64,000 nucleotides of DNA from Nitrosopumilus sp. (lineage in GTDB: Archaea > Thermoproteota > Nitrososphaeria > Nitrososphaerales > Nitrosopumilaceae): assembly GCA_965224195.1 (NCBI GenBank), contig OZ245040.1, forward strand, positions 1,632,001-1,696,000, written 5' to 3'. Numbering within the stretch: position 1 is the stretch's first letter; the number at the start of each line of letters is the position of its first letter. Positions 21,245 through 63,302 of this stretch are shown piece by piece. The notes under the pieces are model-generated. The model made no database searches. It was not told where the DNA came from and saw only the letters and a program-made list of their open reading frames with translations. The position numbers and the translations under genes were made by a program.

Positions 21245-21340
21245 GGACCGGTCGTCTAGTTTGGTTTGGATGACGCACTCACACTGCGTAAGGAAATTAC
21301 TTTCCCGCAAAGGTCGTGGGTTCGAATCCCATCCGGTCTA
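21245..21340 (+). tRNA. tRNA-Val(CAC) with a 21-nt BHB intron at position 44/45 (21291-21311)
   Basis: Acceptor GGACCGG/CCGGTCT-A; anticodon arm ACGCA-CTCACAC-TGCGT; T arm GTGGG-TTCGAAT-CCCAT. BHB formed by TGCG-TAA-GGAAA...TTTCC-CGCA-AAG. Removing the intron restores AGGTC. Confidence 0.9.
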
Positions 21341-21706
21341 TGTCGGTCATGGGTTTATTTACTAGAATCTACTAGGGAGTGTAGAATACCAAATAAGCTA
21401 AAGACGGTACTAAAAAGACTGGACAAACTTCCAGAGAGCCAGACAGGTATTATCTACGAGTTTAAAGGATATAAAGAAGACGAGGAGTGCTCAGAGCGTA
21501 ATGTTGTAAACTTGTTGGTGGTGTTAGAATTATTTGCACGGCATCGTGATGGGAAGAGCTTGTGTGATGTTACAAAAGAGGACATTTTGGGATTTTTGGA
21601 TCCAAGAAAAAAGTCACACGAGATAGACCCTGATGAGAAATGGAAGACTATATGGAACTATTGCCGCAACCACCTGGCAATCCTTTTACCGATGGTATAC
21701 CAATAA
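21341..21706 (+). pseudogene. N-terminal fragment of a thaumarchaeal-type integrase/recombinase, truncated by IS
   Basis: SERNVVN..., TKEDILGFLD.RKK...DPDEKWKTIWN resembles integrase N-domains; directly downstream of tRNA; ends at the IS TIR. Confidence 0.55.
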
Positions 21707-26969: not shown

Positions 26970-28118
26970 CTATATTTTTTCTATTTGTACTAATTGATCA
27001 TACAGATAAGCTTGTTCGGGTAACAAGTTTTTTATTAATTTCTCTTCGTCACTGTCTTTCCCATATTTAATTTTCAGTTCACTCATTATGCCTTTTTTTT
27101 CTTTCATTTCCAAGCCGAAAATTCTTTTTAATTCTATCAAGATAATAGTAATTTTTTTGGAAAGATCATCTAATTCAATTTTTTTTGCAAATTTTTTCAA
27201 AACTAACTTTACAAATACATTAATCAACAAAATGTCTATTATGTGAATATATGTTGGATAACGTGCTTTACCTAACATTTCAGTTGTAAATTTACCAAGA
27301 CGCCCTTCATAGGATTTGTTTAATTTTATATGAGTATCAATTTCTAATAATCCGCTTGAAAATATACCCAAATCTGCAAGTATGACATCAAATGATGGCG
27401 GATCATTTTTAAAAAAAGATATTTCATCATTGGATATTTTTTCAAAAGCATCTATGATTTCTGGAATTAATAGTTTCTCCGAACTAGATTTTATCAATGC
27501 GGCAATATCGTAAATTTGCTTTGGCACATCAAGTCCTCCTTCAGGATCAATTCCTATTGTGTTAAATGGAAGTGTTGTTAATTTATCACCAATTAAAGAG
27601 CCATGATCATAAACAGATAAAGGGAAATTTATCGGAAGTCCTATAATTTCAATGCCATTTTTTATTTTCTTTGATTGAATATTCATGTTATTTCCATAAA
27701 AAATCTCGATTTTTAGATCTGCTTCTTCATTGATTACTGATTTATACCCACAAAAATAGGTCAACAAAGGTAATTCCTTATTACTTACTTTTTTTGGAAC
27801 GTGTGGGTCGCCAATGTCTACTATTCCTTTGAGTTTTTCTGAAACTTTTTTCATTGCCTCAATTACTTCTTCTCTAGAATTTCCAGTTACAATGTCAATA
27901 TCAACACTAAGTCGTCGTAAAGTTTTATCATGTAGATGGAAAGGAACTGCCATTCCTCCTTTAACAACACAATCTGGAATTACCTCTTGAATGTGAGTTA
28001 ATACTTCAAAATCCATGATGAATTGTTCTAATGGTAATGAATCTCTAAACCCATGAGATTCCCTAATAGTGTCAATGCCTTCTTTATTCAAAATATCTTT
28101 GAAGTGTAGTTCTACCAC
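26970..28118 (-). CDS. AbiEii/AbiGii-family nucleotidyltransferase toxin
   Basis: VVKGGMA, RRLSVDIDIV, LKIEI, LIGDKL, KQIYDI motifs. Confidence 0.85.
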   Translation of the reverse strand: MVELHFKDILNKEGIDTIRESHGFRDSLPLEQFIMDFEVLTHIQEVIPDCVVKGGMAVPFHLHDKTLRRLSVDIDIVTGNSREEVIEAMKKVSEKLKGIVDIGDPHVPKKVSNKELPLLTYFCGYKSVINEEADLKIEIFYGNNMNIQSKKIKNGIEIIGLPINFPLSVYDHGSLIGDKLTTLPFNTIGIDPEGGLDVPKQIYDIAALIKSSSEKLLIPEIIDAFEKISNDEISFFKNDPPSFDVILADLGIFSSGLLEIDTHIKLNKSYEGRLGKFTTEMLGKARYPTYIHIIDILLINVFVKLVLKKFAKKIELDDLSKKITIILIELKRIFGLEMKEKKGIMSELKIKYGKDSDEEKLIKNLLPEQAYLYDQLVQIEKI

Positions 28119-33529: not shown

Positions 33530-36500
33530 CTATTTCTTTTTCATTATTTCAAAATAATAAACAATGACAGCAAACACAACGACAAAAAATATTATGGAAA
33601 TTATTAGTAATTCACTCATCGATAGTTTAGGTGCAACAGGTTCAGGTGTTGGTTCAGGTGTGTATACAGGTTCAGGTGTGTATACAGGTTCAGGTGTTGG
33701 TTCAGGTGTGTATACAGGTTCAGGTGTTGGTTCAGGTGTATATACAGGTTCAGGTGTTGGTTCAGGTGTTGGTTCAGGTGTTGGTTCAGGTGTTGGTTCA
33801 GGTGTGTATACAGGTTCTGGTGTTAGCTCTGGTGTTGGTTCCGGTGTTGGCTCTGGTGCTCTGACAGATGATGGCCTGTTGTCCCTGCCGACAATGTCCT
33901 TTAACAGTTCATCCAAATTCATATTATCATAATGTACTATGCCAGGCAGTTCCTTCAGTATGATGTGGCCATCACAGTATGCCGCAGCAGATTCTACCTG
34001 TGCCTGTTTTTGTGATTTGTCGTAACTTTTTATCGACATTACATTTTCAGAAAGCATCTCTAAACCCTCAAAGCTAAACGCATATAGAGAGATTGGCACA
34101 TGCACGGACTTGAAAAGATCTTTCATGCTGGCCTGGGATGTCACATCAATGCCAACATTGGATGGATGCCCGTCTAAGACAATGGAGGCGCCAAGGTTGT
34201 CCCCATATGTACCTGCAACTAATACCACATCATTTTCCAGTCCGCACTGGTTGTACAGCAGTAGTATTGGACTCATTGTAAAACCTACAGAGCCGCTGCT
34301 GCTGCCACGGTCAGCAGGCTGTGGTGTAGTAGGTTTTGGTGTGATGGGTTTTGGTGTGATGGGTTTTGGTGGCAAGGCATCCTCTGGTATTTCTTTAGGA
34401 GTGCTGTCAATTACTGCAGTATCTAGTTCAACACTGACTGCATCTTCAATGACAATAGGATCCCTTACGGCAAGTACTAGGCTGTCATCCTTCTTCACCA
34501 CATCTGCACCATCTGATGTTGGAATGTCATCAGCTAGTGACTTGGTGTGCTGCACTGCCGTGCTATCAGGTGTCAAGCTGGTATTCTTTGTCACATCCAC
34601 GCCGTCTGATGTTGGAATATTGTCAGCCAGTGATTTGACATATTGTTTGGTTACAGAGATATCATCTGATGTTGGGATAGTATCAGCTGGTGACTTGGTG
34701 TGCTGTTCTATTACAGCGCCAGGTGTCAAGTTGGTATTCTTTGTTACAGAGATACCATCTGATGTTGGGATAGTATCAGCTAGTGATTTGACATATTGTT
34801 TGGTTACAGAGATATCATCTGATGTTGGGATAGTATCAGCTAGTGACTTGGTGTGCTGTTCTATTACAGCGCCAGGTGTCAAGTTGGTATTCTTTGTTAC
34901 AGAGATACCATCTGATGTTGGGATAGTATCAGCTAGTGATTTGACATATTGTTTGGTTACAGAGATATCATCTGATGTTGGGATAGTATCAGATGGAGAT
35001 ATGGCATACAGTTTCACTACATCTGCATTGTCCCTTGTTGGGATGTCATCAGCTGGAGATATTGCATATAGTTTCACCACATCTGCACCATCTGATGTTG
35101 GGATGTCATCAGATATGGATTTGACATATTGTTTGGTTACAGAGATACCATCAGATGTTGGGATGGTGTCAGCTGCTGAGCTGGCATATAGTTTCACTAC
35201 ATCTGCACCATCTGATGTTGGGATGTCATCAGATATGGATTTGACATATTGTTTGGTTACAGAGATACCATCTGATGTTGGGATGGTGTCAGATGGAGAT
35301 ATGGCATATAGTTTCACCACATCTGCACCATCTGATGTTGGGATGGTGTCAGATATAGATCTAGAGTACCGCTTTACCACATCCGCATCATCTGATGTTG
35401 GGACGATGTCAGATGGAGATATGGCATATAGTTTCACCACATCTGCACCATCTGATGTTGGGATGGTGTCAGCTGCAGATATTGCGTACCGCTTTACCAC
35501 ATCTGCACCATCTGATGTTGGGATGTCATCAGCTGGAGATATTGCATATAGTTTCACCACATCTGCATTGTCCCTTGTTGGGATGTTATCAGATATGGAT
35601 CTAGAGTACCGCTTTACCACATCTGCACCATCTGATGTTGGGATGTCATCAGCTGGAGATATTGCATATAGTTTCACCACATCTGCATTGTCCTTTGTTG
35701 GGATGTCATCAGATATGGATTTGACATATTGTTTGGTTACAGAGATACCATCAGATGTTGGGATGGTGTCAGCTGCTGAGCTGGCATATAGTTTCACTAC
35801 ATCTGCACCATCTGATGTTGGGATGTCATCAGATATGGATTTGACATATTGTTTGGTTACAGAGATACCATCTGATGTTGGGATGGTGTCAGCTGCTGAG
35901 CTGGCATATAGTTTCACTACATCTGCACCATCTGATGTTGGGATGGTGTCAGATATAGATCTAGAGTACCGCTTTACCACATCCGCATCATCTGATGTTG
36001 GAGCTTCGTCAGATGGAGATATGGCATATAGTTTCACCACATCTGCATTGTCCCTTGTTGGGATGTTATCAGATATGGATCTAGAGTACCGCTTTACCAC
36101 ATCTGCACCATCTGATGTTGGAGCTTCGTCAGCTGGAGATATTGCATATAGTTTCACCACATCTGCACCATCTGATGTTGGGATGGTGTCAGCTGCAGAT
36201 ATTGCGTACCGCTTTACCACATCCGCATCATCTGATGTTGGGATGGTGTCAGATGGAGATATGGCATATAGTTTCACCACATCTGCATTGTCCTTTGTTG
36301 GGATGTTATCAGATATGGATTTGACATATTGTTTGGTTACAGAGATACCATCTGATGTTGGGATGGTGTCAGCTGCTGAGCTGGCATATAGTTTCACTAC
36401 ATCTGCACCATCTGATGTTGGGATGTCATCAGATATGGATTTGACATATTGTTTGGTTACAGAGATATCATCAGATGTTGGAGCTTCATCAGCTGGAGAT

Positions 36501-39500
36501 ATGACATATAGTTTCACTACATCTGCATTGTCCCTTGTTGGGATGTCATCAGATATGGATCTAGAGTACCGCTTTACCACATCAACATCATCTGATGTTG
36601 GAGCTTCATCAGCTGGAGATATGGCATATAGTTTCACTACATCTGCATTGTCCCTTGTTGGGATGTTATCAGATATGGATCTAGAGTACCGCTTTACCAC
36701 ATCTGCACCATCTGATGTTGGGATGTCATCAGCTGGAGATATTGCATATAGTTTCACCACATCTGCATTGTCCCTTGTTGGGATGTTATCAGATATGGAT
36801 CTAGAGTACCGCTTTACCACATCTGCACCATCTGATGTTGGGATGTCATCAGCTGGAGATATTGCATATAGTTTCACCACATCTGCATTGTCCCTTGTTG
36901 GGATGTTATCAGATATGGATCTAGAGTACCGCTTTACCACATCTGCACCATCTGATGTTGGGATGTCATCAGCTGGAGATATTGCATATAGTTTCACCAC
37001 ATCTGCACCATCTGATGTTGGGATGTCATCAGCTAGTGATTTGACATATTGTTTGGTTACAGAGATATCATCAGATGTTGGGATGGTGTCAGCTGCTGAG
37101 CTGGCATATAGTTTCACTACATCTGCACCATCTGATGTTGGGATGTCATCAGATATGGATTTGACATATTGTTTGGTTACAGAGATACCATCTGATGTTG
37201 GGATGGTGTCAGATGGAGATATGGCATATAGTTTCACTACATCTGCACCATCTGATGTTGGGATGTCATCAGATATGGATCTAGAGTACCGCTTTACCAC
37301 ATCCGCATCATCTGATGTTGGAGCTTCGTCAGATGGAGATATGGCATATAGTTTCACTACATCTGCATTGTCCCTTGTTGGGATGTTATCAGATATGGAT
37401 CTAGAGTACCGCTTTACCACATCTGCACCATCTGATGTTGGAGCTTCGTCAGCTGGAGATATTGCATATAGTTTCACCACATCTGCATTGTCCCTTGTTG
37501 GGATGTTATCAGATATGGATCTAGAGTACCGCTTTACCACATCTGCACCATCTGATGTTGGGATGTCATCAGCTGGAGATATTGCATATAGTTTCACCAC
37601 ATCTGCATTGTCCTTTGTTGGGATGTTATCAGATATGGATTTGACATATTGTTTGGTTACAGAGATATCATCAGATGTTGGGATGGTGTCAGCTGCTGAG
37701 CTGGCATATAGTTTCACTACATCTGCACCATCTGATGTTGGGATGTCATCAGATATGGATTTGACATATTGTTTGGTTACAGAGATACCATCTGATGTTG
37801 GGATGGTGTCAGCTGCTGAGCTGGCATATAGTTTCACCACATCTGCACCATCTGATGTTGGGATGTCATCAGATATGGATCTAGAGTACCGCTTTACCAC
37901 ATCTGCACCATCTGATGTTGGAGCTTCGTCAGATGGAGATATGGCATATAGTTTCACCACATCTGCATTGTCCCTTGTTGGGATGTTATCAGATATGGAT
38001 CTAGAGTACCGCTTTACCACATCTGCACCATCTGATGTTGGAGCTTCGTCAGCTGGAGATATGGCATATAGTTTCACCACATCTGCACCATCTGATGTTG
38101 GGATGGTGTCAGCTGCAGATATTGCGTACCGCTTTACCACATCCGCATCATCTGATGTTGGGATGGTGTCAGATGGAGATATGGCATATAGTTTCACCAC
38201 ATCTGCATTGTCCTTTGTTGGGATGTTATCAGATATGGATTTGACATATTGTTTGGTTACAGAGATACCATCTGATGTTGGGATGGTGTCAGCTGCTGAG
38301 CTGGCATATAGTTTCACTACATCTGCACCATCTGATGTTGGGATGTCATCAGATATGGATTTGACATATTGTTTGGTTACAGAGATATCATCAGATGTTG
38401 GAGCTTCGTCAGATGGAGATATGGCATATAGTTTCACTACATCTGCATTGTCCCTTGTTGGGATGTTATCAGATATGGATCTAGAGTACCGCTTTACCAC
38501 ATCAACATCATCTGATGTTGGAGCTTCATCAGCTGGAGATATGACATATAGTTTCACTACATCTGCATTGTCCCTTGTTGGGATGTCATCAGATATGGAT
38601 CTAGAGTACCGCTTTACCACATCAACATCATCTGATGTTGGAGCTTCGTCAGATGGAGATATGGCATATAGTTTCACCACATCTGCATTGTCCCTTGTTG
38701 GGATGTTATCAGATATGGATCTAGAGTACCGCTTTACCACATCTGCACCATCTGATGTTGGGATGTCATCAGCTGGAGATATTGCATATAGTTTCACCAC
38801 ATCTGCATTGTCCCTTGTTGGGATGTTATCAGATATGGATCTAGAGTACCGCTTTACCACATCTGCACCATCTGATGTTGGGATGTCATCAGCTGGAGAT
38901 ATTGCATATAGTTTCACCACATCTGCACTGTCCCTTGTTGGGATGTCATCAGATATGGATTTGACATATTGTTTGGTTACAGAGATATCATCAGATGTTG
39001 GGATGGTGTCAGCTGCTGAGCTGGCATATAGTTTCACTACATCTGCACCATCTGATGTTGGGATGTCATCAGATATGGATTTGACATATTGTTTGGTTAC
39101 AGAGATACCATCTGATGTTGGGATGGTGTCAGCTGCTGAGCTGGCATATAGTTTCACTACATCTGCACCATCTGATGTTGGGATGTCATCAGATATGGAT
39201 CTAGAGTACCGCTTTACCACATCTGCACCATCTGATGTTGGAGCTTCGTCAGATGGAGATATGGCATATAGTTTCACTACATCTGCATTGTCCCTTGTTG
39301 GGATGTTATCAGATATGGATCTAGAGTACCGCTTTACCACATCTGCACCATCTGATGTTGGAGCTTCGTCAGCTGGAGATATTGCATATAGTTTCACCAC
39401 ATCTGCATTGTCCCTTGTTGGGATGTCATCAGATATGGATCTAGAGTACCGCTTTACCACATCTGCACCATCTGATGTTGGGATGTCATCAGATATGGAT

Positions 39501-42207
39501 CTAGAGTACCGCTTTACCACATCTGCACCATCTGATGTTGGGATGTCATCAGCTGGAGATATTGCATATAGTTTCACCACATCTGCACTGTCCCTTGTTG
39601 GGATGTCATCAGATATGGATTTGACATATTGTTTGGTTACAGAGATATCATCAGATGTTGGGATGGTGTCAGCTGCTGAGCTGGCATATAGTTTCACTAC
39701 ATCTGCACCATCTGATGTTGGGATGTCATCAGATATGGATTTGACATATTGTTTGGTTACAGAGATACCATCTGATGTTGGGATGGTGTCAGATGGAGAT
39801 ATGGCATATAGTTTCACCACATCTGCACCATCTGATGTTGGGATGTCATCAGATGGAGATATTGCATATAGTTTCACCACATCTGCATTGTCCCTTGTTG
39901 GGATGTTATCAGATATGGATCTAGAGTACCGCTTTACCACATTGACTGCGTCCTTTGATGGAGCTGCATCAGATGGAGATATTGCATATAGTTTCACTAC
40001 ATCTGCACCATCTGATGTTGGGATGGTGTCAGCTGCAGATATTGCGTACCGCTTTACCACATTGACTGCGTCCTTTGATGGAGCTGCATCAGATACCCAT
40101 TGAAGAAGCTCAAAAGGTTGCAGGATCTCCACATCAACTGCGTCCTTTGATGGAGCTGCATCAGATACCCATTGAAGAAGCTCAAAAGGTTGCAGGACCT
40201 CCACATCAACTGCGTCCTTTGATGGAGCTGCATCAGATACCCATTGAAGAAGCTCAAAAGGTTGCAGGACCTCCACATCAACTGCGTCCTTTGATGAAAC
40301 TGCATCAGATACCCATTGAAGAAGCTCAAAAGGTTGCAGGACCTCCACATCAACTGCGTCCTTTGATGGAGCTGCATCAGATACCGAGCTGGTATATAGT
40401 TTTACCACATCCGCATCATCTGATGTTGGAGCTGTATCAGATGGAGATATTGCATGCCGCTTTACCACATCCGCATCATCTGATGTTGGAGCTGTATCAG
40501 ATGGAGATATTGCATACCGCTTTACCACATCCGCATCATCTGATGTTGGAGCTGTATCAGATGTAGACATGGCATGATCACCACTTCGATACAAAACAAC
40601 CAGAGTAGTAGATTCATCATTTAAATTTCCGCTTAGGTCACTAACAGCTCCTGGTGACATGAAAAGATACCTTAAATCATGTAAAATTAATTCAAGTAGT
40701 TGCTTCTTTTTTATTGTGATTGATAAATCCGTACCATTACCAACTTTATTTATCTTAGCCTTGGAAAGTACAACGTCATTACCTTTCCCATCACCCAAAA
40801 ACATTTTTGACAAATCTGTCTTGTCAATATGTATCGGCTCATCAAATTTGATTCCAAGAGTCCTAGTTGTTTTATCTAATTTTACAGGGTATGGCAACTT
40901 GTGAACATCAATTATATATACATCAGTATCAGAATCAGATGATGTAACTATCGCATAAATTTTATCACCAATTTCAAATGTACTGGCTTTTGCCTGATTA
41001 GGAATTGTTGTTACAACACTTACAAGTAATGGTTCATATGGATTACTCACATCAAATGTTGACACAGCATCAGATGCAGTAACTATCGCATAAATTTTAT
41101 CACCAATTTCAGATATATTGACTCCACTTAGATGATTAAAAGAAAGATAATATTCATTATATATCGCGTCTACATGTTTAGGTTTTTTCGGGTTACTCAC
41201 ATCAATTATTGACGCAGCATCATCATCAGATGCAGTAACTATCGCATAAATTTTATCACCAATTTCAAATGTTGCAACTCCGCTTGCACCACCAGTTGCA
41301 GGCGTATAACTGGTTATCTCACGTACTAGTTTAGGTTTTTTCGGGTTACTCACATCAATTATTGACGCAGCATCATCATCAGATGCAGTAACTATCGCAT
41401 AAATTTTATCACCAATTTCAAATGTTGCAACTCCACTTGCGCCACCAAGGCTGTTAAACTTTTTTGGATTAGCAACAAAACTAGCAGGAGGGTTTACTGG
41501 TGTTCGTTCATCTATTGCAGATCCTATATGCTGCAAATCTTTGGGATTAGAAACATCAAATAAATAAATACCGCTTTCACGACCCTCATAACATTGTTTA
41601 GTAATTTGATTACAAGTCCTACTAGGGATACCCTCGTCGTGAACTGAAAATATTGCATACTGTTTAGATTTGATTTTAAAAATATTGACATCAGTGAATT
41701 GTGGGTAAGGGTATACGCCATAATCTATTTCATGCTGCTTGATAATAGTTGGCTTTTTCAGGTTTGTTATATCCACTGTAAATATATTATCTTCATCATT
41801 CAAGCCCGCTAACGCATAGATGTTATTTTCAATATAATAGACTGCAACTACCCCCCCCCCCAAATCACTGTTGTTATTGCCAGGAAACATCATCGTACTA
41901 ACAAACAAAGGGTTCAGAGGATCACTGACATCATAAAAAATCAAAGATTTGCGATTGGTATCTTCTACACCAATATTTGCAGTTAACAAAAGGGCATATG
42001 TTTTCTTGTTTATGTCATCAGTAACTATTGCAACATCATTTACATGCAAAACATTGTGTGATAAAATAATTTCACTAACAAAATCCTCATGCGTTATTAT
42101 GGATGGCTTTTTTATGTCAGTAGAGACTTGGGCGTTTACATCAATTACACCATAACTTAATACGACGACGACGGTAATAAAAAACAGAATTTAATTCTAG
42201 AAAACAT
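33530..42207 (-). CDS. giant cell-surface protein: signal peptide, LVIVD-type beta-propeller, ~100 tandem 20-24-aa repeats, Pro-rich linkers, C-terminal TM anchor
   Basis: ORF 33530-42049 is open upstream to about 42190. One added base joins it to ATG 42207 (MFSRIK..FFITVVVVLSYGVIDVNAQ). IIDVSNP repeats; EPTP linker; TM plus KKK at the C-terminus. Confidence 0.88.
33637..33860. repeat. 12/18-bp tandem repeats encoding the EPTP/EPVYTP linker
   Basis: (GGTTCAGGTGTT)n interspersed with GGTTCAGGTGTGTATACA. Confidence 0.9.
34490..40565. repeat. coding tandem array: about 86 consecutive 60-bp units plus longer variant units at both ends
   Basis: 60-nt lines align in register from about 34920 to 40080; four 69-bp units at about 40090-40380; conserved core CATCTGATGTTGG. 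Confidence 0.97.
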
Positions 42208-51844: not shown

Positions 51845-52914
51845 TAGATGAGTTGTGCAATTAGTCCAATTTGAGTATAATCTCAACATTTTCTAATCAT
51901 AAGATCCAAAGCTAAGGCTGAATTATTTTCAATTCATGTTTAATTGCACAAAACTGGCAAAAAAACCAAAGCAATTCCTGTCAATAGCAGGACTAACTGT
52001 TCCACAATTTGATTCCCTATACAAGGAAATAAAGAAAAATTGCAAAACTGCAGAACAAAAGGGACTGTCCAAAAATAGAGAAAGAGACATTGGTGCAGGA
52101 CACAAGTTTGACTTGTCCTTCAAAGACAGAATTCTAATGTTTTTCATGTACTACAGAATGTACACAACATATGACATGCCAGGGATGATGTTTGATTTGG
52201 ACAAACCAAACGTAATGAGAAACATCGGATGTTTGGAGCCTGCAGTGAAGCAGTCCATATAATTGCTGCCAAAAAATATGCAGACTCAAAAAAGATTAAC
52301 GGCATGCAGGAATTGCAGGAATTCTTTCCGGAATTAGTTGCAATCACTGATGGCACAGAACAGCCCATCCCAAGACCAAAAAACAAAAAGAAAAGAAAGA
52401 CACACCATTCAGGCAAAAAGAAAAAACATGCAGTACAAAATCAAATCGCCATAAATCTTGATGGGATAACAATCCACAAATCTGCACATTCGCCTGGCAG
52501 CCATCATGATTACAGAATTTACAAATCAAAGCATCCAACATTGTCTGAAGGGTTGTCGCAGTCTTATGATCTTGGATATTTGGGGATGGAAAAAGACTTT
52601 CCAGAACAGGCAAGTGTTTTGCCATACAAGAAAAAGAAAGGAAAAAAATTGACTGTTACTCAAAAGGAGTGGAACAAGATGCAGTCAAAAATTAGAATAA
52701 AAGTTGAACATGCTATTGCACAAGTCAGGCAATTTCGGATAAATCGCGATGTGTTTAGAAACAAATTATGCAGATATGATGTGACAAGTGAAATTGTTTG
52801 TGGGACTGTCAATTTCAAGATTAAATGGAAAGAAGAATTCATTACAATTCCATAAAATTAAAAATTAAATGATAGAAAAGTTAGATTTTTGTTTGCAATT
52901 ACGCAACTCATCTA
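51845..52914 (+). mobile_element. IS5-family (ISL2/DDE_Tnp_4-like) element (copy 1 of family C), frameshifted
   Basis: TIRs TAGATGAGTTGTGCAATT and AATTACGCAACTCATCTA; ORFs 51936-52262 and 52229-52855 (TDGTEQPI.RP, GSHHD, DLGYLG, RIKVEH). Confidence 0.92.
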
Positions 52915-53207
52915 GAAGATTCAACAAAACCTCCCCAAAATTTTCAATAGTAATCTAAGAATTATAATAGTTCTAGGCACAATTTAGAGAATTATAATAG
53001 AATTAAAGCTAAGAAAATTACAAGCAATTTTCACGAGCAACCAATTTCTAATGACTAGAATCGGATCTTCATACAAAATTTTGAAAATTTCTGTAGAAAA
53101 TCAATCATAATTCACTTAGATAAATTTCATATTTTATTCAAAGTATCTAATATTTAGTCTTAAATTAGTGCAAAACTATATAAATTAAAGCATTGTAATA
53201 ATACTAA

Positions 53208-55334
53208 ATGGATATCACTTCAATAAAGCTTCTCAAATCATTAGTTGAAGGACAAAAAGAAACAAACGAATTGATGAGTCTGCTAGGAATAAAGGAAAGA
53301 CGGTTAGCATACATAACAAAAAATCTTGTGGAAGAAGATTACATAGAAAAAGAAAATACAGTAATCAGATTAAAAGAAACACCAAAAGCTATACTGTTTA
53401 GAGATATTACACAGGTTGTAGATGTTGAGAAATTACTTCGTGATTCAAATGAAATAATACTTTCCAACATAGATGTAAACATTACAGTAGATCAATTAAT
53501 AAAAAAATCAGGATTATCAAAGACAACAACCTATAGATCTATTTCAGATTTACAATCCATTGGGTCTGTCCTAAAAAATGAAGATGTGATAAACATTGAT
53601 GAATCAAAAGAACAACTAGTTTTATTTACAAAATTATTAAAAACTGAAAGAGAGAGAAAATATGAAGATGGAAACACCGAAATTATTTATAATAATAACT
53701 CAACAATATTACGAAAAACCCCAAGTGGAAAAGTTGCAAAAGGTGCAACAACAGGATTTACACTATTTTCAGATTATGATATAGAATATCAAACTACGCA
53801 TGATTATTTTTGTGAACAAAAAAATGATTTAGAAATACAAGATGTGTTATTACATGCAGTTTATTCTGCAAATTATTCAAAAAATAAAATGGAATTATTA
53901 ATTGCAATTGTTTTTTATGTAAAACACAAGGACAATATGGATATTCTACAATTACGAAAAAATGCAACAGGGTTAGGAATATCAGAAATTTGGTTAGATA
54001 TTGAAGCTTACATACGTAGAAAACAATTGAAAAATACACATTTATTTTTGCCATGGGATGAATTTCTATCCAAAGCAAAATTATATGATATACCAATTGA
54101 AAAATACACATTACCAAAACCAAGTAATTTATTGTTTAGAGAAATTAGTGATGAGCTAAAAGAATCAAAAACAATATATCTATTTGGTGGAGAAAATATG
54201 AGAATAAAATCATTAAAGGATAGTACAAAAGACTGTGACATAGTAGTAGAAAACAAGGATGATTTTGAACATTTAGCTGAAATTCTTACTAAGATGGAAT
54301 ATGAAAGAAGATTAGAAACAAAGTATTCTGATGAAGATAGAAGAATAAAACCAGATGATATTTTTGAACATGATAAAAAAAGCAGGATTGATCTATTCAC
54401 ATCTACAATAATGCAAGATCTATCGCTATCCTCAACTATGAAAGAAAGAGCAGACATTAGAGATTATGGAAAATTAAAGGTAGGATTACTAAGAAATGAG
54501 GATGTATTTTTACTCAAAGCAATAGCAAATAGAGAAGGAGACATACAAGATATGGCTGCATTAGTCACAGGTAGTCCAAATACACCTCATGAATTACAAC
54601 ATGGCTCTTTTGATTGGGAATTGGTTTGGGAGGAAATTCTAAGACAAGAACACATTAACCACACAAAAGATCTTACAGCAACTATTTTTGATCAAATATC
54701 ATACCTTGCAAAACAAACAGGTATTGTTGCCCCATTTCTAGAAAAACTAAGGAGACATGTCATAGATGTAATGATCAAAAGATTAGTACGTGGTGGCAGT
54801 ATACCAATAAAAGAAATTGTTGAATTGTTGAATGGGGGAGATATTACCGAACCAATGATTCGAAATAGAACTGATGCATTAGAAAAAAGTGAAACAATTC
54901 AGAAATATTCTGTTGGAAGAATAACATATATCAAACTATTAAAAAATAATGAATATTCTGAAAAAGAATTAGAGATTAATACTCATCGTTTTAAAACCTA
55001 TCTTGATTGGCGTTTCGCTATTAGACAAAAACAATCAGATCAAAATATTCAAGAATTTGTAGAAGAACTACAAGATCTAGGATTTCAAACAATTGGAGAA
55101 ATTGATAAAATAATTAGGAATTCTACTGAAATATTAAAGCAATATGAAAATGAGCAGTTTTCAAAACGCCATTTTGATGCAGTTGGTGCAACAAGAATTT
55201 GTGTTGGATTAAACTATTCAGATCTTGGCAAGAAACGTTCATCAGAATATTTCATAAGCCAATTTGAAAAATATAATCATATAGCAAGAGGTAAGTTTAT
55301 TCCTGAATATCCAGTTAAAATGGTGAGAATATGA
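53208..55334 (+). CDS. tandem wHTH regulator fused to a DUF6036/AbiEii-like nucleotidyltransferase
   Basis: N-terminal HTHs (GLSKTTTYRSI..L), central TGFTLF.DY.I region, NTase IYLFGGENM...STKDCDIVV, RIDLF, LLKAIANREGDIQD. Confidence 0.8.
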   Translation: MDITSIKLLKSLVEGQKETNELMSLLGIKERRLAYITKNLVEEDYIEKENTVIRLKETPKAILFRDITQVVDVEKLLRDSNEIILSNIDVNITVDQLIKKSGLSKTTTYRSISDLQSIGSVLKNEDVINIDESKEQLVLFTKLLKTERERKYEDGNTEIIYNNNSTILRKTPSGKVAKGATTGFTLFSDYDIEYQTTHDYFCEQKNDLEIQDVLLHAVYSANYSKNKMELLIAIVFYVKHKDNMDILQLRKNATGLGISEIWLDIEAYIRRKQLKNTHLFLPWDEFLSKAKLYDIPIEKYTLPKPSNLLFREISDELKESKTIYLFGGENMRIKSLKDSTKDCDIVVENKDDFEHLAEILTKMEYERRLETKYSDEDRRIKPDDIFEHDKKSRIDLFTSTIMQDLSLSSTMKERADIRDYGKLKVGLLRNEDVFLLKAIANREGDIQDMAALVTGSPNTPHELQHGSFDWELVWEEILRQEHINHTKDLTATIFDQISYLAKQTGIVAPFLEKLRRHVIDVMIKRLVRGGSIPIKEIVELLNGGDITEPMIRNRTDALEKSETIQKYSVGRITYIKLLKNNEYSEKELEINTHRFKTYLDWRFAIRQKQSDQNIQEFVEELQDLGFQTIGEIDKIIRNSTEILKQYENEQFSKRHFDAVGATRICVGLNYSDLGKKRSSEYFISQFEKYNHIARGKFIPEYPVKMVRI

Positions 55335-56218
55335 GTGAAGAAAACGAAATAGATGTTGTAGATGGTGAAAATCCTCTCCTAACAAGAGTAAAAGAGGATT
55401 TAGATGGTGAAAATATTGTAGCATTCTTAGGCCCTCCAAATAGTGGAAAAACTGTTATTGCAACATTACTAAATGATTCAATTTTTACACATTTTCTTGA
55501 AAAATATGAGGAAGAATATGAAGCAAATATGGTAAACGGTTATGAGTTTTTGAAAACTACAAGAAATGTAATGTTAGATGGAAAATTCCCAAGTACAACA
55601 TTACCAGATAATCAAGGTGAAGTCATTTTTGAAATTGTGAGAAAAGGTCCACTTGGTAAGGGAATGCAACTTAGAATTAAAGATATTTCAGGTGAAGATT
55701 ATGAGTCGTTACTAATATCAGGTGATTTAGATGCTGAAAAACGAGTAGAAAGTGTTCTACGACGACATAAAACTAGATCCATGCGTTATGGTCCACTTAG
55801 TTTTATCACAGTTGCCAAGATGTATGTGATAATGATTGATTGTTCTTTATATCAAAAATGGAAACACCTGGACCTTGATTATGCACATCTTGTAAATTCA
55901 TTATTAGATTTTCAAAAAATAGTTAGAGGTAATAGTGAAAAAATAGAAGCGGCAATTGCAATAATTCTAACAAAGACAGATCGTATACCAGATGATGTGA
56001 ATGATTCTGCAAAAGATCTTTTAGCAAAACAAATGCCACAATTTCATAAAACACTGAATATGTTGCATTCAGGTTCTAAAGAATATTTTAAATTAAGTAT
56101 AGACACCAATAGAACAACATCAAATGAGCAAGATCAGACAGGAGTAAAAGTGCCTTGGTCATACAGTAGTGATGAATATAGTCGACTCATAGTTTGGATT
56201 TTAAACAATATTTTATGA
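55331..56218 (+). CDS. TRAFAC-class GTPase (DO-GTPase-like)
   Basis: G1 GPPNSGKT, G2 FPSTT, G3 DISGE, G4 TKTD; ATGA overlap with upstream gene. Confidence 0.85.
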   Translation: MSEENEIDVVDGENPLLTRVKEDLDGENIVAFLGPPNSGKTVIATLLNDSIFTHFLEKYEEEYEANMVNGYEFLKTTRNVMLDGKFPSTTLPDNQGEVIFEIVRKGPLGKGMQLRIKDISGEDYESLLISGDLDAEKRVESVLRRHKTRSMRYGPLSFITVAKMYVIMIDCSLYQKWKHLDLDYAHLVNSLLDFQKIVRGNSEKIEAAIAIILTKTDRIPDDVNDSAKDLLAKQMPQFHKTLNMLHSGSKEYFKLSIDTNRTTSNEQDQTGVKVPWSYSSDEYSRLIVWILNNIL

Positions 56219-56224
56219 TAGAAT

Positions 56225-57523
56225 ATGCCAACTTGCGAACATTTTGTATACACTACAGCTAAAACCGATACAAAAACAGGGTATCAAATTGTAGCAAAAA
56301 GTAGTGGTATAAACGATCGAATCTTAAACAATATGATTAGTTATTTCTTTCCACTTGGTGTTGATGCAATGGAATTTACAGAATCAAAATCACTTTTACC
56401 TATAGGAAAGGAGCACATAGCATATTCAATAATAAAAAACATAGGAATTGGGTATGATGGTAGAGATGGAACATTATACAACCATACAATAATTATGAAA
56501 AAAGATGATTTTGCAAAAATTGAATACGATACAAGAATTCTTGACAAATATTTTATTGAAGAATATTCCATAAGAGGAGATCTAGATCAATTATACATAC
56601 AACCAGAAAAAATAGAGATAGATTTTGAATATCTAAAAAAATTAAATGTAGATTTTTTAAGTACGCTTTTATTTTATTTATTTAAAAAAAATAAAGTAGC
56701 TATTCTAAAAATAGTAGATGGGAAACTAATACAAAATATTCTATCAGTTATTCCTCCACAAATTAGATTTATGGCATTTTCTACATTAGTTTTAGAACCA
56801 ACTCGTCAAACAAAATATCAACTAATTCAGATACCAAGTAAAGTACAATCAAAACTTCAAACAAATTATACGAGTATAAATCCTGATGCATTACCAACTT
56901 CAAAAATCAAAATGGCCAAAGACATAGGCATCCAAAACATAATAGAAATGATTAATCAAAATAACCAAAAAGAACTACTTAGACTTCATAAAGATTTTGA
57001 AAAAATTATAACACAAGTATCAAAAAGTAAAAGAATTAAAATTAAAGATATTTTCAACATAGAAGAATTTGAAAATTTAGCTGAAAATAAAAGATTCCAT
57101 ATATTATTAAAAAATGTAAAAAATCTTTATTCCAGTCCTGCTTTTAATCAAGCATCTCCGAGAACCATTCTGACAATTACAAAAAAAATTGGAAAAATTA
57201 TTAAAAAATCTTTAAAATCACATGAAAAGAATAATCTCGATCAATCTGATTTTGAAAAACTGATGTCGGTTTCCAAAATTTTATTGGATTGCTTGAATTA
57301 CATTAATCAACTAAGTGAAAAGAAAATGGGAAACACAATACAACTAGAAATTGAAAATGAAATTGAAAATATAGAACACATATTGAAACAATATCCACAA
57401 ATGGAATCAATGATGCAAGAATATGAATTCAATCCATATAATTATTTCAAAGTCATATGGGAGAATGTTTTGTATTCAGCATACTCTATGGCATTGTTTT
57501 TTCTAGGCCGTAAATGGTGGTAA
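56225..57523 (+). CDS. GAP1-N2-like (GTPase-associated protein 1) domain protein
   Basis: HFVYT...GYQIVAKSSG, G.DGR.G..YNHTII, ILSVIPP..R..AFST; hydrophobic C-terminal tail; 6 bp after the GTPase. Confidence 0.7.
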   Translation: MPTCEHFVYTTAKTDTKTGYQIVAKSSGINDRILNNMISYFFPLGVDAMEFTESKSLLPIGKEHIAYSIIKNIGIGYDGRDGTLYNHTIIMKKDDFAKIEYDTRILDKYFIEEYSIRGDLDQLYIQPEKIEIDFEYLKKLNVDFLSTLLFYLFKKNKVAILKIVDGKLIQNILSVIPPQIRFMAFSTLVLEPTRQTKYQLIQIPSKVQSKLQTNYTSINPDALPTSKIKMAKDIGIQNIIEMINQNNQKELLRLHKDFEKIITQVSKSKRIKIKDIFNIEEFENLAENKRFHILLKNVKNLYSSPAFNQASPRTILTITKKIGKIIKKSLKSHEKNNLDQSDFEKLMSVSKILLDCLNYINQLSEKKMGNTIQLEIENEIENIEHILKQYPQMESMMQEYEFNPYNYFKVIWENVLYSAYSMALFFLGRKWW

Positions 57524-57650
57524 GAAAAAATAATTGTAGTGTATGAATAATAGATTTTTGAGAATGTCTAAAAAAACTGAACCATAAATTGCAGAATTTA
57601 TAGAATGGATAAATAGATTAGATGATCCCTACAAAATTTTTGTATTTACA

Positions 57651-57932
57651 TTGTTTAATGTGATCTCTTTGTATGCAATGACTACAGTTGGGATTGGTAT
57701 AGATACAAACTCCATAAATGAATTCGTTGCAGGAACTATTATTGAGACACACGGAGATGAAACTCTTAATTTCGTTTGGTCTACTCTGATACAACCAGTA
57801 TTGTTAGTTATTGGAATAATTCAATTAGGTATTTCACTTTATGCAATATGGAAATTTAGGTGGTTAGGTGTTATTATTTCAATTACGGGATTTGTCGGAT
57901 GGGTTTTTGTTATATTTAGACTAAGGGAATAA
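57651..57932 (+). CDS. small multi-pass membrane protein (real start probably upstream near 57565, frameshifted)
   Basis: Three hydrophobic segments; frame open upstream (IAEFIEWINRLDDPYKIFVFT). Confidence 0.6.
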   Translation: MFNVISLYAMTTVGIGIDTNSINEFVAGTIIETHGDETLNFVWSTLIQPVLLVIGIIQLGISLYAIWKFRWLGVIISITGFVGWVFVIFRLRE

Positions 57933-59361: not shown

Positions 59362-59664
59362 ATGTCTACAATTCACAAAACAACAGACGCTCGTATTATT
59401 CAATTTCCAATTATGAAGGAAATTGATGCAGATATCAACAAGATTGCTTTTACACTTTCTACAGATATTGAAACACAATACGTAGTGCTATTAGAACAAG
59501 ATGAATCTGGCAGAATCATTGCTACTTGTCCTAAATTACAAGGAGTGGTAGCAGATGGTGCTGATGAAAAAGAAGCTATAGAAAATGTCAGAGATGCAAT
59601 TGACGTGATATTAGAAGATATGGATAATGAAAAAGAGTTTAACATAGTCAGTTATTATCTCTAA
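59362..59664 (+). CDS. hicB: HicB-like antitoxin (no C-terminal DNA-binding domain)
   Basis: EQDESG...ATCPKLQGVVADG....EAIENVRDAI. Confidence 0.88.
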   Translation: MSTIHKTTDARIIQFPIMKEIDADINKIAFTLSTDIETQYVVLLEQDESGRIIATCPKLQGVVADGADEKEAIENVRDAIDVILEDMDNEKEFNIVSYYL

Positions 59665-59667
59665 AAT

Positions 59668-59916
59668 GTGTCTGATAAGCTTCCAGTTTTAAAATCCTCA
59701 CAATTAATAAAATATTTACAATCGAAAGGATTTGAACTGCAACCTAGGAAAAAGAAAGGAAGAGGAAGTCACATTGTTTTTAGAAATGCAGAAGGAAGAA
59801 GAACTGTAGTTCCTTCTCATGGTGGGAATAATGAAATTGGAGTAGGGTTACTACGGAGTATTTTATTTCAAGCTGGAATAGGAATAGAAGAATTTAAACG
59901 GGATTGGAATGGGTAA
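59668..59916 (+). CDS. hicA: HicA mRNA interferase toxin
   Basis: LIKYL..KGF, GSHIVF, RTVVPSH, GLLRSIL.QAGI. Confidence 0.92.
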   Translation: MSDKLPVLKSSQLIKYLQSKGFELQPRKKKGRGSHIVFRNAEGRRTVVPSHGGNNEIGVGLLRSILFQAGIGIEEFKRDWNG

Positions 59917-60443: not shown

Positions 60444-61515
60444 CTACTCTGTCGAACAAATCATTTCCAACTAATGATTAATTTCATTTCCCTCAAACAC
60501 TTGCAAACAGATTGTACAGCTCGACTTTTAATTCCAATTCCTTTACCATGTATTTTCTTTTGTGAGCCATGACATACTCACCAGACATCCTTTTGAATGT
60601 TGAAAACACACACTCTACAATCCACCTGTCCCCATAGCTAACGCTGCGCTTCCACAAATCCAAATTATACATTTGAGCCAAAACTGATTTCTTTCGGAGA
60701 TAACATTTTGTTTTGAGAGATGATGTCTTTCTAACTTTGATTGCAGGCAGTGCATTTGTGTTGTGGTACAGATATGAAAAGTTGTTTTCTGAATCATATG
60801 CGCCATCAGCTAGAGCCTTGGTTACATTTCCTTTGTACAATGCTTGTTGTACTAGTTCTGGCAGATGTGCCAGGCATCATGGAATGAATCATCAATTATT
60901 TTCAGTGAAACTATTTTCTTTGATTTCACATCTGCACCAACATGGATTTTCAAGAATCCTCTTCTCATGTGCCATTTCTGTCGCATCCATTCACCTCTGT
61001 CTGCAACTGGTAAATAGACCTTCACCACATAGTGTTTCTAATTGCCATTTCTGTCGCATCCATTCACCTCTGTCTGCAACCTTGATTCCAGTGCTGTCAA
61101 TTGCTAAAATGATTTCATTGTTATCTCCAATGGAATTATCAATTTTGATGTCAAGCTTGTTTATTCTCTTGTGAATTGATGTGAAATCAGGAACTGCTGG
61201 AATTCTATTACAGTATGCACGAATCATTCCTTCTGTTTGTCTGAATGGCAGTCCAAAATATGCTCTGGCATAACCCAATAATTTCATAAACGATTCAGGA
61301 TAGCCTGGACTTTCTACCTCTTTTGTTGTGATTCATGACCTCCAGTTCTTTATGCCAGTTCTCAATGACATCAAATGACATGATGTTCTTCACCCCTTCT
61401 GACTAGTTTTTCATTGTATTGACTCCATTGTACCATGAAAATAATCAGAATGTGAGATCCAAATCTATTGTGGTGTAATGATATTGATCAGATTGTTGTT
61501 TGTTAGACAAAGTAC
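60444..61515 (-). mobile_element. IS5-family (IS903-like) element (copy 2 of family B), broken by a 73-bp insertion and frameshifts
   Basis: Same ends as 21707-22701; ORFs 60991-61287 and 60493-60840 nearly identical to 21934-22653. Confidence 0.92.
60970..61080. repeat. exact 38-bp direct repeat flanking a unique 35-bp insert
   Basis: TGCCATTTCTGTCGCATCCATTCACCTCTGTCTGCAAC at 60970-61007 and 61043-61080; insert 61008-61042. Confidence 0.95.
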
Positions 61516-62232: not shown

Positions 62233-63302
62233 TAGATGAGTTGTGCAACTAGTCCAATTTGAGTATAATCTCAACATTTTCTAATCATAAGATCCAAAGC
62301 TAAGACTGAATTATTTTCAATTCATGTTTAATTGCACAAACTGGCAAAAAAACCAAAGCAATTCCTGTCAATAGCAGGACTAACTGTTCCACAGTTTGAT
62401 TCCCTATACAAAGAAATAAAGAAAAATTGCAAAACTGCAGAACAAAAGAGACTATCCAAAAATAGAGAAAGAGACATTGGTGCAGGACACAAGTTTGACT
62501 TGTCCTTCAAAGACAGAATTCTAATGTTTTTCATGTACTACAGAATGTACACAACATATGACATGCCAGGGATGACATTTGATTTGGACAGACCAAACGT
62601 AATGAGAAACATCAGATGTTTGGAGCCTGCAGTGAGGCAGTCCATTGTAATTGCTGCCAAAAAATATGCAGACTCAAAAGAGATTAACGGCATGCAGAAA
62701 TTGCAAGAATTCTTTCCGGAATTAGTTGCAATCACTGATGGCACAGAACAGCCCATCCCAAGACCAAAAAACAAAAAGAAAAGAAAGACACACCATTCAG
62801 GCAAAAAGAAAAAACATGCAGTACAAAATCAAATCGCCATAAATCTTGATGGGATAATAATCCACAAATCTGCACATTCGCCTGGCAGTCATCATGATTA
62901 CAGAATTTACAAATCAAGGCATCCAACATTGTCTGAAGGGTTGCTGCAGTCTTATGATCCTGGATGTTTGGGGATGGAAAAGGACTTTCCAGAACAGGCA
63001 AGTGTTTTGCCATGCAAGAAAAAGAAAGGAAAAAAATTGACTGTTGCTCAAAAGAAGTGGAACAGGATGCAGTCAAAAATTAGAATAAAAGTTGAGCATG
63101 TCATTGCACAAGTCAGGCAATTTCGGATAAATCGCGATGTGTTTAGAAACAAATTATGCAGATATGATGTGACAAGTGAAATTGTTTGTGGGACTGTCAA
63201 TTTCAAGATTAAATGGAAAGAAGAATTCATTACAATTCCATAAAATTAAGAATTAAATGACAGAAAAGTTAGATTTTTGCTTGTAATTACGCAACTCATC
63301 TA
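62233..63302 (+). mobile_element. IS5-family (ISL2-like) element (copy 2 of family C)
   Basis: Same TIRs as 51845-52914, flanked by TTAA on both sides; transposase 62332-63243 nearly full length. Confidence 0.93.

Follow-up and report, generated by a model that had tools for sequence, protein, structure and literature searches.

A DO-GTPase and a Predicted DENN-Like GAP1 Protein Coupled to a MenT-Like Nucleotidyltransferase in Nitrosopumilus: A Probable Archaeal Conflict-System Variant

Introduction

In a stretch of 64,000 nucleotides from the thaumarchaeon Nitrosopumilus sp. (assembly GCA_965224195.1, contig OZ245040.1, positions 1,632,001 to 1,696,000 of the forward strand), three coupled genes, here called A, B and C, encode respectively a protein combining winged helix-turn-helix (wHTH) domains with a nucleotidyltransferase (NTase), a DO-GTPase, and a member of the GAP1 family whose predicted fold is that of a DENN module. 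The whole stretch is referred to below as the window, and positions are counted from its first letter. In the reading that we prefer, and that we hold to be probable while leaving real weight to other explanations, the trio is an archaeal form of the DO-GTPase/GAP1 conflict systems: a GTPase/DENN-like switch licenses a MenT-like RNA nucleotidyltransferase that otherwise restrains itself, with defence as the probable role.

Systems built on a DO-GTPase and a GAP1 protein have so far been known from one computational survey, which left them without an assigned mechanism. The version found here is minimal and so brings the mechanism within reach of tests: it has one GTPase, one GAP1 protein and a single enzymatic output. 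Its most interesting point is the DENN-like fold predicted for GAP1, which also bears on the origin of eukaryotic GTPase regulators. The setting is also of interest, ammonia-oxidising archaea being abundant and their antiviral defences little known.

Organization of the Operon

The genes of the operon are as follows.

53208..55334, + strand: gene A, 708 aa; two wHTH domains, a middle domain, a MenT/AbiEii-like nucleotidyltransferase, a further wHTH and a C-terminal domain named Acterm
55331..56218, + strand: gene B, 295 aa; a single DO-GTPase lacking a zinc ribbon
56225..57523, + strand: gene C, 432 aa; GAP1-N2 family, ending in ...LGRKWW
57564..57932, + strand: remnant of a gene D, with a TAA at codon 8 (57585-57587), a frameshift near the 3' end and the 3' part lost
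57651..57932, + strand: open reading frame (ORF) of D, 93 aa with a TTG start, part of this remnant

An original prediction, made from the nucleotide sequence alone, had described a four-gene operon at this place. The positions of its four ORFs agree with ours, and the tight coupling that it reported can be read directly in the DNA: the start codon of B overlaps the stop codon of A (aatATGAgtg) and 6 bp separate B from C. Database searches at E<=1e-3 returned 163 relatives of A, 29 of B and 74 of C, so that all three are real genes rather than chance ORFs; named relatives of A and C come from Nitrosopumilus, Nitrosotalea and metagenome-assembled genomes labelled 'Thaumarchaeota'. The three large genes are thus real, coupled and conserved.

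The fourth gene fared differently. The intact homologue of D, located just after C in the related locus L070 (4747-5229), encodes 160 aa with about four hydrophobic segments. The window keeps the ATG of this homologue at 57564, followed by the stop at codon 8 and, further on, close to the 3' end, by a 1-bp insertion; homology ends at about 57965. D-like sequence follows C in the two closest loci only (L070 and L069) and was absent downstream of C in all other fetched loci. The small transmembrane protein that had been taken as intact is therefore a decayed, non-core gene. As D is decayed and not conserved, and as the tail of C is only mildly hydrophobic, the placement of the system at the membrane, which had also been put forward, is weakly founded.

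The DO-GTPase and Its GAP1 Partner

Protein B is assigned to the DO-GTPases by Pfam, with 35.3 bits for DO-GTPase1 and 27.5 bits for DO-GTPase2 (PF19975/PF19993), the gathering cut-off being 27 for both. The intact GTPase motifs noted in the original prediction were found to be conserved in 37 aligned sequences: the P-loop GxxxxGKT is kept (G34, G39, K40 and T41), the Walker B motif D118-x-x-G121-E122 is present in at least 90%, and K215 and D217 of TKxD are invariant. The conserved glutamate of Walker B has been described as the mark of the DO-GTPase family (Kaur et al., eLife 2020, PMC7159879). In the window these motifs are located as follows.

55430-55453, + strand: G1 of B
55682-55696, + strand: DxxGE of B
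55970-55981, + strand: TKxD of B

The protein contains a single cysteine and its P-loop begins at residue 34; no zinc ribbon is present. In the survey of Kaur et al., two paralogous GTPases are reported in 38% of the systems and N-terminal zinc ribbons in 60% (PMC7159879). B is the sole DO-GTPase copy of its own genome, as judged by a six-frame search of 2.07 Mb in 2 contigs, in which it scored 31.6 bits.

Relatives of C were studied in 35 loci with custom profile hidden Markov models. They fall into three size classes: a short form of about 430 aa, to which the window belongs, a long form of 572-608 aa and a third of about 370 aa. The Pfam model GAP1-N2 (PF20013) was matched by 31 of 35 relatives at E<=0.01, with a best E-value of 1.5e-7, and two long-form relatives pass its 24-bit cut-off with 31.8 and 30.0 bits. 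Membership in GAP1-N2 is therefore established at the family level and borderline for window C alone. The nearest ESM-Atlas clusters are bacterial GAP1-N2/N1/M proteins (score 0.93), a lead only, given its low recognition value. Together with the DO-GTPase scores of B, these matches bear out the GTPase plus GAP1 pair of the original prediction. The two motifs that it had pointed out in C, YT...GYQIVA.S.G and R.G...H, also proved to be conserved in the 35 sequences, where T10, G19-Y20-Q21, S26 and G28 are kept in at least 90% and N72, G74, G76, D78, R80 and H87 are invariant.

An AlphaFold model of C (mean predicted local distance difference test score, pLDDT, 85.6; predicted template modelling score 0.72) consists of a longin domain (residues 1-130), a DENN core (131-266) and a helical, dDENN-like part (267-432). 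Residues 3-98 follow the order beta-beta-alpha-beta-beta-beta-alpha, and the invariant set from N72 to H87 sits in the loop between strands 4 and 5 of this longin-like domain. Longin-type GTPase-activating proteins (GAPs) carry an arginine finger in the longin domain. When the model was searched with Foldseek, the top four matches, all those at E<=0.001, were DENND1B and DENND1A bound to Rab35 (E 6.5e-5 to 4.8e-4; best match 3tw8_C, E 6.5e-5, probability 1.00), followed by FLCN-FNIP2, C9orf72-SMCR8, DENND10 and TagF. Superposition with VIA-align gave Z 10.5 for DENND1B (3tw8_C; 267 residues aligned over residues 1-432 with a root-mean-square deviation, rmsd, of 5.4) and Z 8.9-9.3 for the DENN half of folliculin, while Lst4 and a Lokiarchaeal Roadblock-Longin protein matched the longin part only (Z 8.3 each). 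A second fold search, independent of Foldseek, covered 48,161 chains. Among the matches listed, only two span the whole model (1-432), DENND1A with 272 residues aligned at Z 10.2 and DENND10 with 273 at Z 9.3; the DENN half of folliculin covers residues 131/132-432, and the other listed matches concern generic C-terminal helices only.

The DENN-like partner suggested by the original prediction is thus recovered at the top of the fold searches. This likeness holds at the level of the fold and for a predicted structure, since the Pfam families uDENN, DENN, dDENN and longin gave no match for C at E<=0.1, nor for the 35 relatives at E<=0.01. In these terms, C is a GAP1-family protein with a predicted DENN-module fold. 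Family and fold taken together make C a likely direct regulator of B, as GAP, guanine nucleotide exchange factor (GEF) or nucleotide-state reader. A predicted complex of B, C and Acterm scored a median of 0.62, compared with 0.59 when C was swapped for an unrelated protein; this score is not specific.

The tail of C forms a mildly hydrophobic helix with Trp residues (Kyte-Doolittle 1.21 over 19 residues). Trp-rich aromatic tails occur in both short and long forms (…GRKWW, …QWFWW, …VWWPW and …LWHLW), and they could serve as a membrane-interface anchor or as a docking peptide. With regard to GTPase subfamily, the short-form B scores higher with DO-GTPase1 than with DO-GTPase2, even though GAP1-N2 is the model matched by its partner C. 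For two long-form B proteins the balance tips towards DO-GTPase2.

A MenT-Like Nucleotidyltransferase Framed by Winged Helices

The AlphaFold model of A (pLDDT 88.8) is made of five parts, the four given below and a middle domain.

53208..53597, + strand: two winged helices, residues 1-130 (1-57 and about 75-130)
54114..54719, + strand: nucleotidyltransferase domain, residues 303-504
54744..54953, + strand: third winged helix, residues 513-582, resembling SqrR, MecI and BlaI (Z 10.1-10.7)
54930..55310, + strand: Acterm, residues 575-701, a helical domain also present in the RelA/SpoT proteins encoded ahead of B-C in sister loci

The N-terminal part matches MarR/ArsR-type wHTH folds (Z about 10-11) and, among 34 family members, the Pfam families TrmB (30/34) and HTH_24 (25/34). 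The middle domain (residues 135-300) is conserved; no family was matched to it, and no AbiEi family was listed by Pfam.

In the NTase domain, G327, G328, E329, N330, M331, K334, K337, T340, D342, D344, K437, R442 and D448 are invariant across the 34 sequences, and D395 is kept in at least 90%. The closest structure is that of the toxin MenT1 (8an5_A), with which the domain superposes over 179/194 residues (Z 12.4, rmsd 3.9, 19% identity) and which Foldseek retrieved with E 6.9e-4 and probability 1.00. Further fold matches are MenT4 (Z 10.3), LnuA, TM1012 and ANT(2'')-Ia, at Z 10.2-10.5. The domain hence has the fold of the MenT/AbiEii (DUF1814) toxins and keeps their GG..DxD motif, whereas it differs from them in forming part of a 708-aa protein that has three wHTH domains as well, in having no separate antitoxin gene and in matching no Pfam AbiEii model. 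In particular, no separate small antitoxin gene was found beside A among the ORFs of the locus. The AbiEii-like character assigned by the original prediction therefore holds for the fold, MenT1 belonging to DUF1814 of the AbiEii family, and does not extend to the Pfam sequence profile.

In several relatives of A from soil archaea of the Nitrososphaera type (P0177, P0185, P0187, P0191 and others), Acterm is missing and a C-terminal TFIIB cyclin repeat is found instead. This repeat (PF00382) was detected in 4 of the 34 family members, with a best E-value of 1.6e-13. Such a replacement suggests that the wHTH-NTase core has been reused with different output or docking domains.

Acterm, a Domain Shared with RelA/SpoT-Type Enzymes

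Acterm is a previously unnamed domain, named in the present analysis. It had no match in Pfam; a sequence search of the PDB gave at best E 0.06, for the HSF2 DNA-binding domain, and the ESM Atlas returned only leads at the 0.76 level. A profile built from 18 sequences was searched against 1.84 billion proteins, leading to 349 cluster representatives at E<=1e-3. Among 113 Acterm-bearing proteins scanned with Pfam, 68 carry a RelA_SpoT domain, and single proteins combine Acterm with a CAP12/Pycsar TIR domain, a T5orf172 domain, TPR repeats or a TrmB winged helix. From these architectures, Acterm is a widespread C-terminal module of nucleotide-using, toxin-like enzymes. In the present clade, its role may be regulatory or autoinhibitory, with B-C acting on it.

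Single-gene RelA/SpoT proteins with an Acterm-like C-terminus were also observed on the Bacillus mycoides plasmid pBM482 (L120, 5986-7011; E 8e-20) and on a Streptomyces avidinii plasmid (L121, 5881-6945; E 3e-5). Their neighbours are mobile and defence-like genes, namely DUF4435, DUF3800, a P-loop NTPase and an integrase; no GTPase or GAP1 gene was found near either of them. The idea that Acterm is a homotypic, EAD-like adaptor was rejected, hhalign giving probabilities of 0.9% against the C family and 0.2% against the B family.

Linkage, Partner Exchange and Decay

The gene order around C is strongly conserved at its core and variable at its front. In each of the 30 loci whose sequence extends upstream of C, the gene immediately before it is B. 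Among the short-form loci, the upstream sequence was long enough in 13, and in all 13 B is preceded by A or, where the contig breaks off, by the Acterm end of A; four further short-form loci had insufficient upstream sequence and stand outside this count. Translational coupling of A, B and C was seen in relatives as in the window. The linkage of the NTase to the GTPase pair in other genomes, on which the original prediction depended, is thus observed, both in these 13 loci and in 8 loci where a remnant of B follows A.

With the other forms of C, the first gene is exchanged. In L051/L109, L062, L079, L080 and L110 it encodes a RelA_SpoT protein of 329-351 aa (E 1e-20 to 1e-22) with a C-terminal Acterm. 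In L063, L065/L050, L066, L082, L085 and L087 it encodes, on the same strand, a pentapeptide-repeat protein of about 480 aa, and in L052 such a gene is divergent from B-C; the long-form loci of this group have a B with a long insert (365-413 aa). The first gene of L061, L064, L083 and L084 received no assignment. Linkage of A to B-C is therefore specific to one sub-clade, A also occurring without B-C and B-C with other partners.

The distribution of the system is patchy. A search of 251 genomes of the order detected C in 5, one copy being a pseudogene (G202); of the 24 other genomes belonging to the genus, 3 have it. A six-frame analysis covered 30 Acterm loci from 401 genomes of the class, 24 of these loci having a full Acterm. 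Behind the latter, a full B follows in 10 (8 A-type and 2 RelA/SpoT-type), and in all 10 the start of C follows B, cut to the first 27 model positions in L104. In 8 others, a B remnant stands directly after an intact A whose frame is open over 708-720 aa; in the remaining 6, no trace of B was detected. B is missing from all six loci whose Acterm is partial. As B or its remnant stands behind 18 of 24 full-Acterm genes, the A-B-C arrangement was ancestral in this clade, and B-C has often been lost while A was kept. Genome G202 offers a side view of this decay with three copies of A (L041, at G202:C1:488000-506000, L037 and L039): one decayed A-B-C with stops in A and C split in two, one copy with a 163-aa B remnant, and one with a B remnant of 35 positions.

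Proposed Mechanism and Alternative Explanations

In the mechanism that we favour, B and C would form a GTP-dependent sensor and switch, C acting directly on B as GAP, GEF or nucleotide-state reader. A would be the output, as a nucleotidyltransferase of MenT/AbiEii-like type that binds DNA and has kept its catalytic residues intact. Self-restrained when alone, A would, once licensed by B-C, nucleotidylate RNA, most likely tRNA 3' ends, so that translation stops. Toxicity and tRNA modification are predicted for A by analogy with the MenT toxins, which are described as extending tRNA acceptor stems (PMC10435456, PMC7450476). A GEF or GAP activity of C on B is likewise a proposal derived from the model. 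The earlier interpretation of the locus is supported by the data as a whole, while control of the NTase by B-C is, together with B-C binding, activation rather than restraint of A, the substrate of A and the role in defence, what we infer from them.

The direction of this control is suggested by the pattern of decay. If B-C neutralised A, losses of B-C should be lethal; as such losses are tolerated with A intact, B-C would be an activator or sensor that licenses A, not an antitoxin, and A would restrain itself. The presence of Acterm on both MenT-like and RelA/SpoT-like enzymes, together with the repeated decay of B-C, likewise suggests a self-restrained toxin with an external licensing switch. 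The system shows several hallmarks of conflict systems, notably a patchy C, a variable first gene and an insertion sequence (IS)-bracketed, low-GC island that also holds a HicAB pair.

Tolerated decay may also be understood in another way. A could sense its trigger and restrain its NTase through its own wHTH domains and Acterm, in a logic recalling that of CapRel, with B-C being a dispensable accessory regulator that one clade acquired. In favour of this explanation, which we think unlikely, all 8 loci with no more than a remnant of B have an intact A, A-family genes stand alone in 13 of the 18 stretches examined, and Acterm ends single-gene plasmid RelA/SpoT proteins without GTPase or GAP1 as well as being joined to RelA_SpoT in 68 of the 113 proteins scanned. 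Against it, all 13 short-form C genes with upstream sequence keep A, the three genes are translationally coupled in the window and in relatives, and the 18 of 24 full-Acterm genes followed by B or its remnant make the trio ancestral. This explanation overlaps with a licensed, self-restrained A rather than excluding it. A different output is conceivable as well: instead of poisoning the cell directly, A or the RelA/SpoT protein, switched on by B-C, might make a nucleotide second messenger for a separate effector, such as D or one encoded elsewhere. For related ternary systems, a second threshold formed by nucleotide-generating domains, RelA-type ones among them, has been proposed (Kaur et al., PMC7159879). 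Both enzymes found as alternative first genes are nucleotide-using, of polymerase-beta fold or RelA type, the RelA/SpoT-Acterm protein P0231 is nearest to the small alarmone synthetases YwaC and YjbM (E 1e-10 to 1e-14), and a gene with several transmembrane segments follows C in the two closest relatives. Yet the best structural relatives of A are toxins and small-molecule adenylyltransferases (MenT1, MenT4, LnuA and ANT(2'')), a CD-NTase does not come up in Foldseek before rank 49 (E 0.097), no receptor or effector gene is kept across the loci, D-like sequence being present in only two others and decayed in the window, and the third variant of the first gene is a non-enzymatic pentapeptide-repeat protein. 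We accordingly give the messenger hypothesis a small chance of being right.

The remaining alternative would remove the system from conflict altogether. A GTPase with a longin/DENN partner, comparable to MglA/MglB or Rab/DENN, could control A as a transcription factor for polarity, membrane or stress physiology. The three wHTH domains of A and the TFIIB cyclin repeat that replaces Acterm in its soil relatives (4/34, best E 1.6e-13) would suit such a housekeeping role, and pairs of Longin/Roadblock proteins and GTPases are described in polarity and trafficking (PMC3521125). A housekeeping module is nevertheless difficult to reconcile with a distribution that is patchy even within the genus (3/24), with pseudogenised copies (G202), with an IS-bracketed island containing a HicAB toxin-antitoxin pair, with a swapped first gene and with conserved catalytic residues in a toxin-like NTase; we regard it as very improbable.

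A number of observations weigh against the licensed-toxin interpretation. On the side of A, Pfam AbiEii (PF08843) gave no match at E<=0.1, nor was it among the 25 commonest families of the 34 members, and the sequence matches of the NTase are weak, with NTP_transf_5 in 4, DUF2204 in 5 and DUF6036 in 5 of the 34 members. Strong A matches (E<=1e-100) occur in 16 of the 251 genomes of the order compared with 5 for C, and the A family is often without B-C and without Acterm; in 13 of 18 stretches around A and C matches, A has no B or C ORF of at least 50 aa. A family wider than B-C may have a function of its own. Similarly, a role of Acterm as dedicated DO-GTPase/GAP1 adaptor is weakened by the plasmid RelA/SpoT-Acterm proteins that lack B and C: being present on these standalone proteins, Acterm is not dedicated to B-C. 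On the side of C, the GAP1-N2 match of the window protein (21.5 bits, E 2.5e-4) lies under the 24-bit cut-off; although the model has three domains, GAP1-M was matched by one of the 35 relatives (E 0.0083) and GAP1-C by none, and the DENN link is one of fold only, on a predicted model with a moderate Z of about 10. The typical companions of GAP1-N2 are absent, there being no fibronectin type III (FNIII)-repeat protein, no GTPase zinc ribbons and no second GTPase. Finally, no relatives of A or C were found on viral contigs, and the literature search found no experimental work on any DO-GTPase/GAP1 system, the family being a computational prediction.

Relation to Known GTPase-Centric Systems and DENN Modules

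The closest known systems are the GTPase-centric ones of Kaur et al., of GAP1-N2 type, in which, as here, the gene of a TRAFAC GTPase bearing the Walker-B glutamate immediately precedes that of a GAP1 protein with three domains, predicted ones in the case of C, and this constant pair is joined to variable, mobile and patchily distributed partner genes (PMC7159879). The operon differs from them in having one GTPase without zinc ribbons or transmembrane segments, and no FNIII-repeat, tubulin or vWA partner; no match to fn3 was obtained among the scanned neighbours, in the window and in related loci. Partners consisting of a wHTH-MenT-like NTase, RelA/SpoT-Acterm or pentapeptide-repeat proteins are not named for GTPase-centric systems in the passages of this survey that were consulted. 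The same text mentions such systems in 'a few archaea', naming Methanosarcina mazei and Cuniculiplasma divulgatum; the host is here a thaumarchaeon, and the string 'thaumarchae' does not occur in the main text, its source-data files being a place where such loci may be listed (PMC7159879). By comparison with this pattern, the operon would be a GTPase/GAP1 conflict system in an archaeal variant form, fitting the published scheme and departing from it in partners, host and missing companions.

The predicted fold of C invites a second comparison. Eukaryotic and Asgard DENN modules (DENND1A/B-Rab35, FLCN-FNIP, C9orf72-SMCR8 and DENND10) have the same succession of longin, alpha/beta DENN core and helical lobe as the model of C, and are likewise associated with a small GTPase, as in the Asgard operon of Roadblock, Rab-like GTPase and DENN (bioRxiv 10.1101/2020.10.19.343400). 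Unlike these modules, C has no detectable similarity to Pfam DENN or longin and resembles them in predicted fold only, its partner B is a DO-GTPase and not Rab, Rag or Arf, and it is located in a mobile conflict island of a non-Asgard archaeon. Before the Asgard discovery, DENN had been identified only in eukaryotes according to the same preprint (bioRxiv 10.1101/2020.10.19.343400), and the module has been treated as eukaryotic, with longin derived from MglB-like Roadblock proteins (Zhang et al. 2012, PMC3521125). The words 'DENN', 'longin' and 'TagF' do not occur in the main text of the GTPase survey (PMC7159879). In the literature that could be searched, no link from GAP1 to DENN or longin was found, and 'bacterial DENN', 'prokaryotic DENN' and 'DENN-like' had no occurrence among the matches listed. 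A 2026 preprint refers to unpublished observations of profilin-longin-like domains accompanying GTPases in anti-selfish-element systems.

The longin and DENN-core part of the model of C is also matched by TagF of type VI secretion systems (PDB 9t0n and 6iz8), with a Foldseek E-value of 3.9e-3 and, in VIA-align, Z 8.1 and rmsd 5.0 for 233 residues aligned over residues 1-266. This match is weaker than that to DENND1A/B. We know of no GTPase partner of TagF in the type VI context, and no statement connecting TagF with 'DENN domain' was found in the literature search.

These comparisons lead us to a tentative proposition, which we consider possible rather than probable: GAP1 would be a true homologue of the DENN module, and the association of a GTPase with longin-DENN-dDENN would predate Asgard archaea and eukaryotes, having existed earlier in the mobile defence systems of bacteria and of archaea outside the Asgard group; in the present clade, it would gate tRNA-targeting toxins via Acterm, a domain common to MenT-like and RelA/SpoT-like enzymes. 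If this is true, the GTPase plus DENN partnership of membrane traffic (Rab/DENN, Rag/FLCN and Arf/C9orf72) was not born in Asgard archaea or eukaryotes. In addition, the predicted fold supplies a hypothesis for the role of GAP1, namely that of a GAP or GEF for the DO-GTPase.

Mobile Setting and Neighbouring Genes

The operon was said in the original prediction to lie between mobile-element ends, which is indeed the case. The following features surround it.

51845..52914, + strand: left IS copy, with an HTH_Tnp_4 + DDE_Tnp_4 transposase and the inverted ends TAGATGAGTTGTGCAA / TTACGCAACTCATCTA
53177..53184, + strand: candidate archaeal TATA box TATATAAA, with its centre about 27 nt upstream of the start codon of A
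62233..63302, + strand: right IS copy, with an intact 303-aa transposase (62332-63243)

The two IS copies are in direct orientation, 96% identical, and enclose 9.3 kb; two 1-bp indels split the left transposase into ORFs of 108 aa and 208 aa. Besides the operon, three orphan genes and a HicB/HicA pair lie in the bracketed segment, together with fragments of another IS. The operon has a G+C content of 0.25-0.31, compared with 0.35-0.44 in the DNA on its left. As judged from its sequence and place, the candidate box TATATAAA fits an archaeal promoter of a leaderless operon transcript. A 13-nt direct repeat, AGAATTATAATAG, stands at 52958-52970 and 52988-53000, 30 nt apart and about 210-250 nt upstream of A; this pair is a possible operator for the winged helices of A.

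A search of six proteins with PADLOC returned no real match, only wHTH-type noise from Csa3/CARF models, and an NCBIfam scan gave nothing meaningful. Inside the bracketed segment, the HicB-like gene (E 1e-3) and HicA (E 9e-15) occupy 59362-59916 (+), and an orphan ORF of 161 aa overlaps the end of this pair. Further on, a perfect 38-nt direct repeat (60970-61007 and 61043-61080, 73 nt apart) is found within the region of DDE_Tnp_1 transposase fragments.

On a larger scale, a tRNA-Val of 98 nt (21244-21341), possibly intron-bearing, stands at the head of a long variable region (window 21244-63302) with many ORFs lacking a Pfam match and at least 6 IS-type transposase genes or fragments (at 21934, 45247, 46872, 51936, 60493-61287 and 62332). 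The same region carries an AbiEii-family NTase gene (PF08843, E 1.1e-11; 382 aa, 26970-28118, - strand), located directly downstream of a gene for a 638-aa HATPase_c_3 (GHKL/MORC-like) ATPase, the two ORFs sharing base 28118 (26970-30034, - strand). With its ATPase, this gene makes up a second toxin-like NTase module of the variable region. An ORF of 2839 aa (33530-42049, - strand) has weak local Pfam matches (Pullulanase_N2 and Bflower_3) and possibly encodes a surface protein. Near the left end of the window (1297-4978, - strand), a DisA-type diadenylate cyclase of 593 aa with DACNG and DACNH sensor domains adjoins a DEAD_2/Helicase_C_2 helicase.

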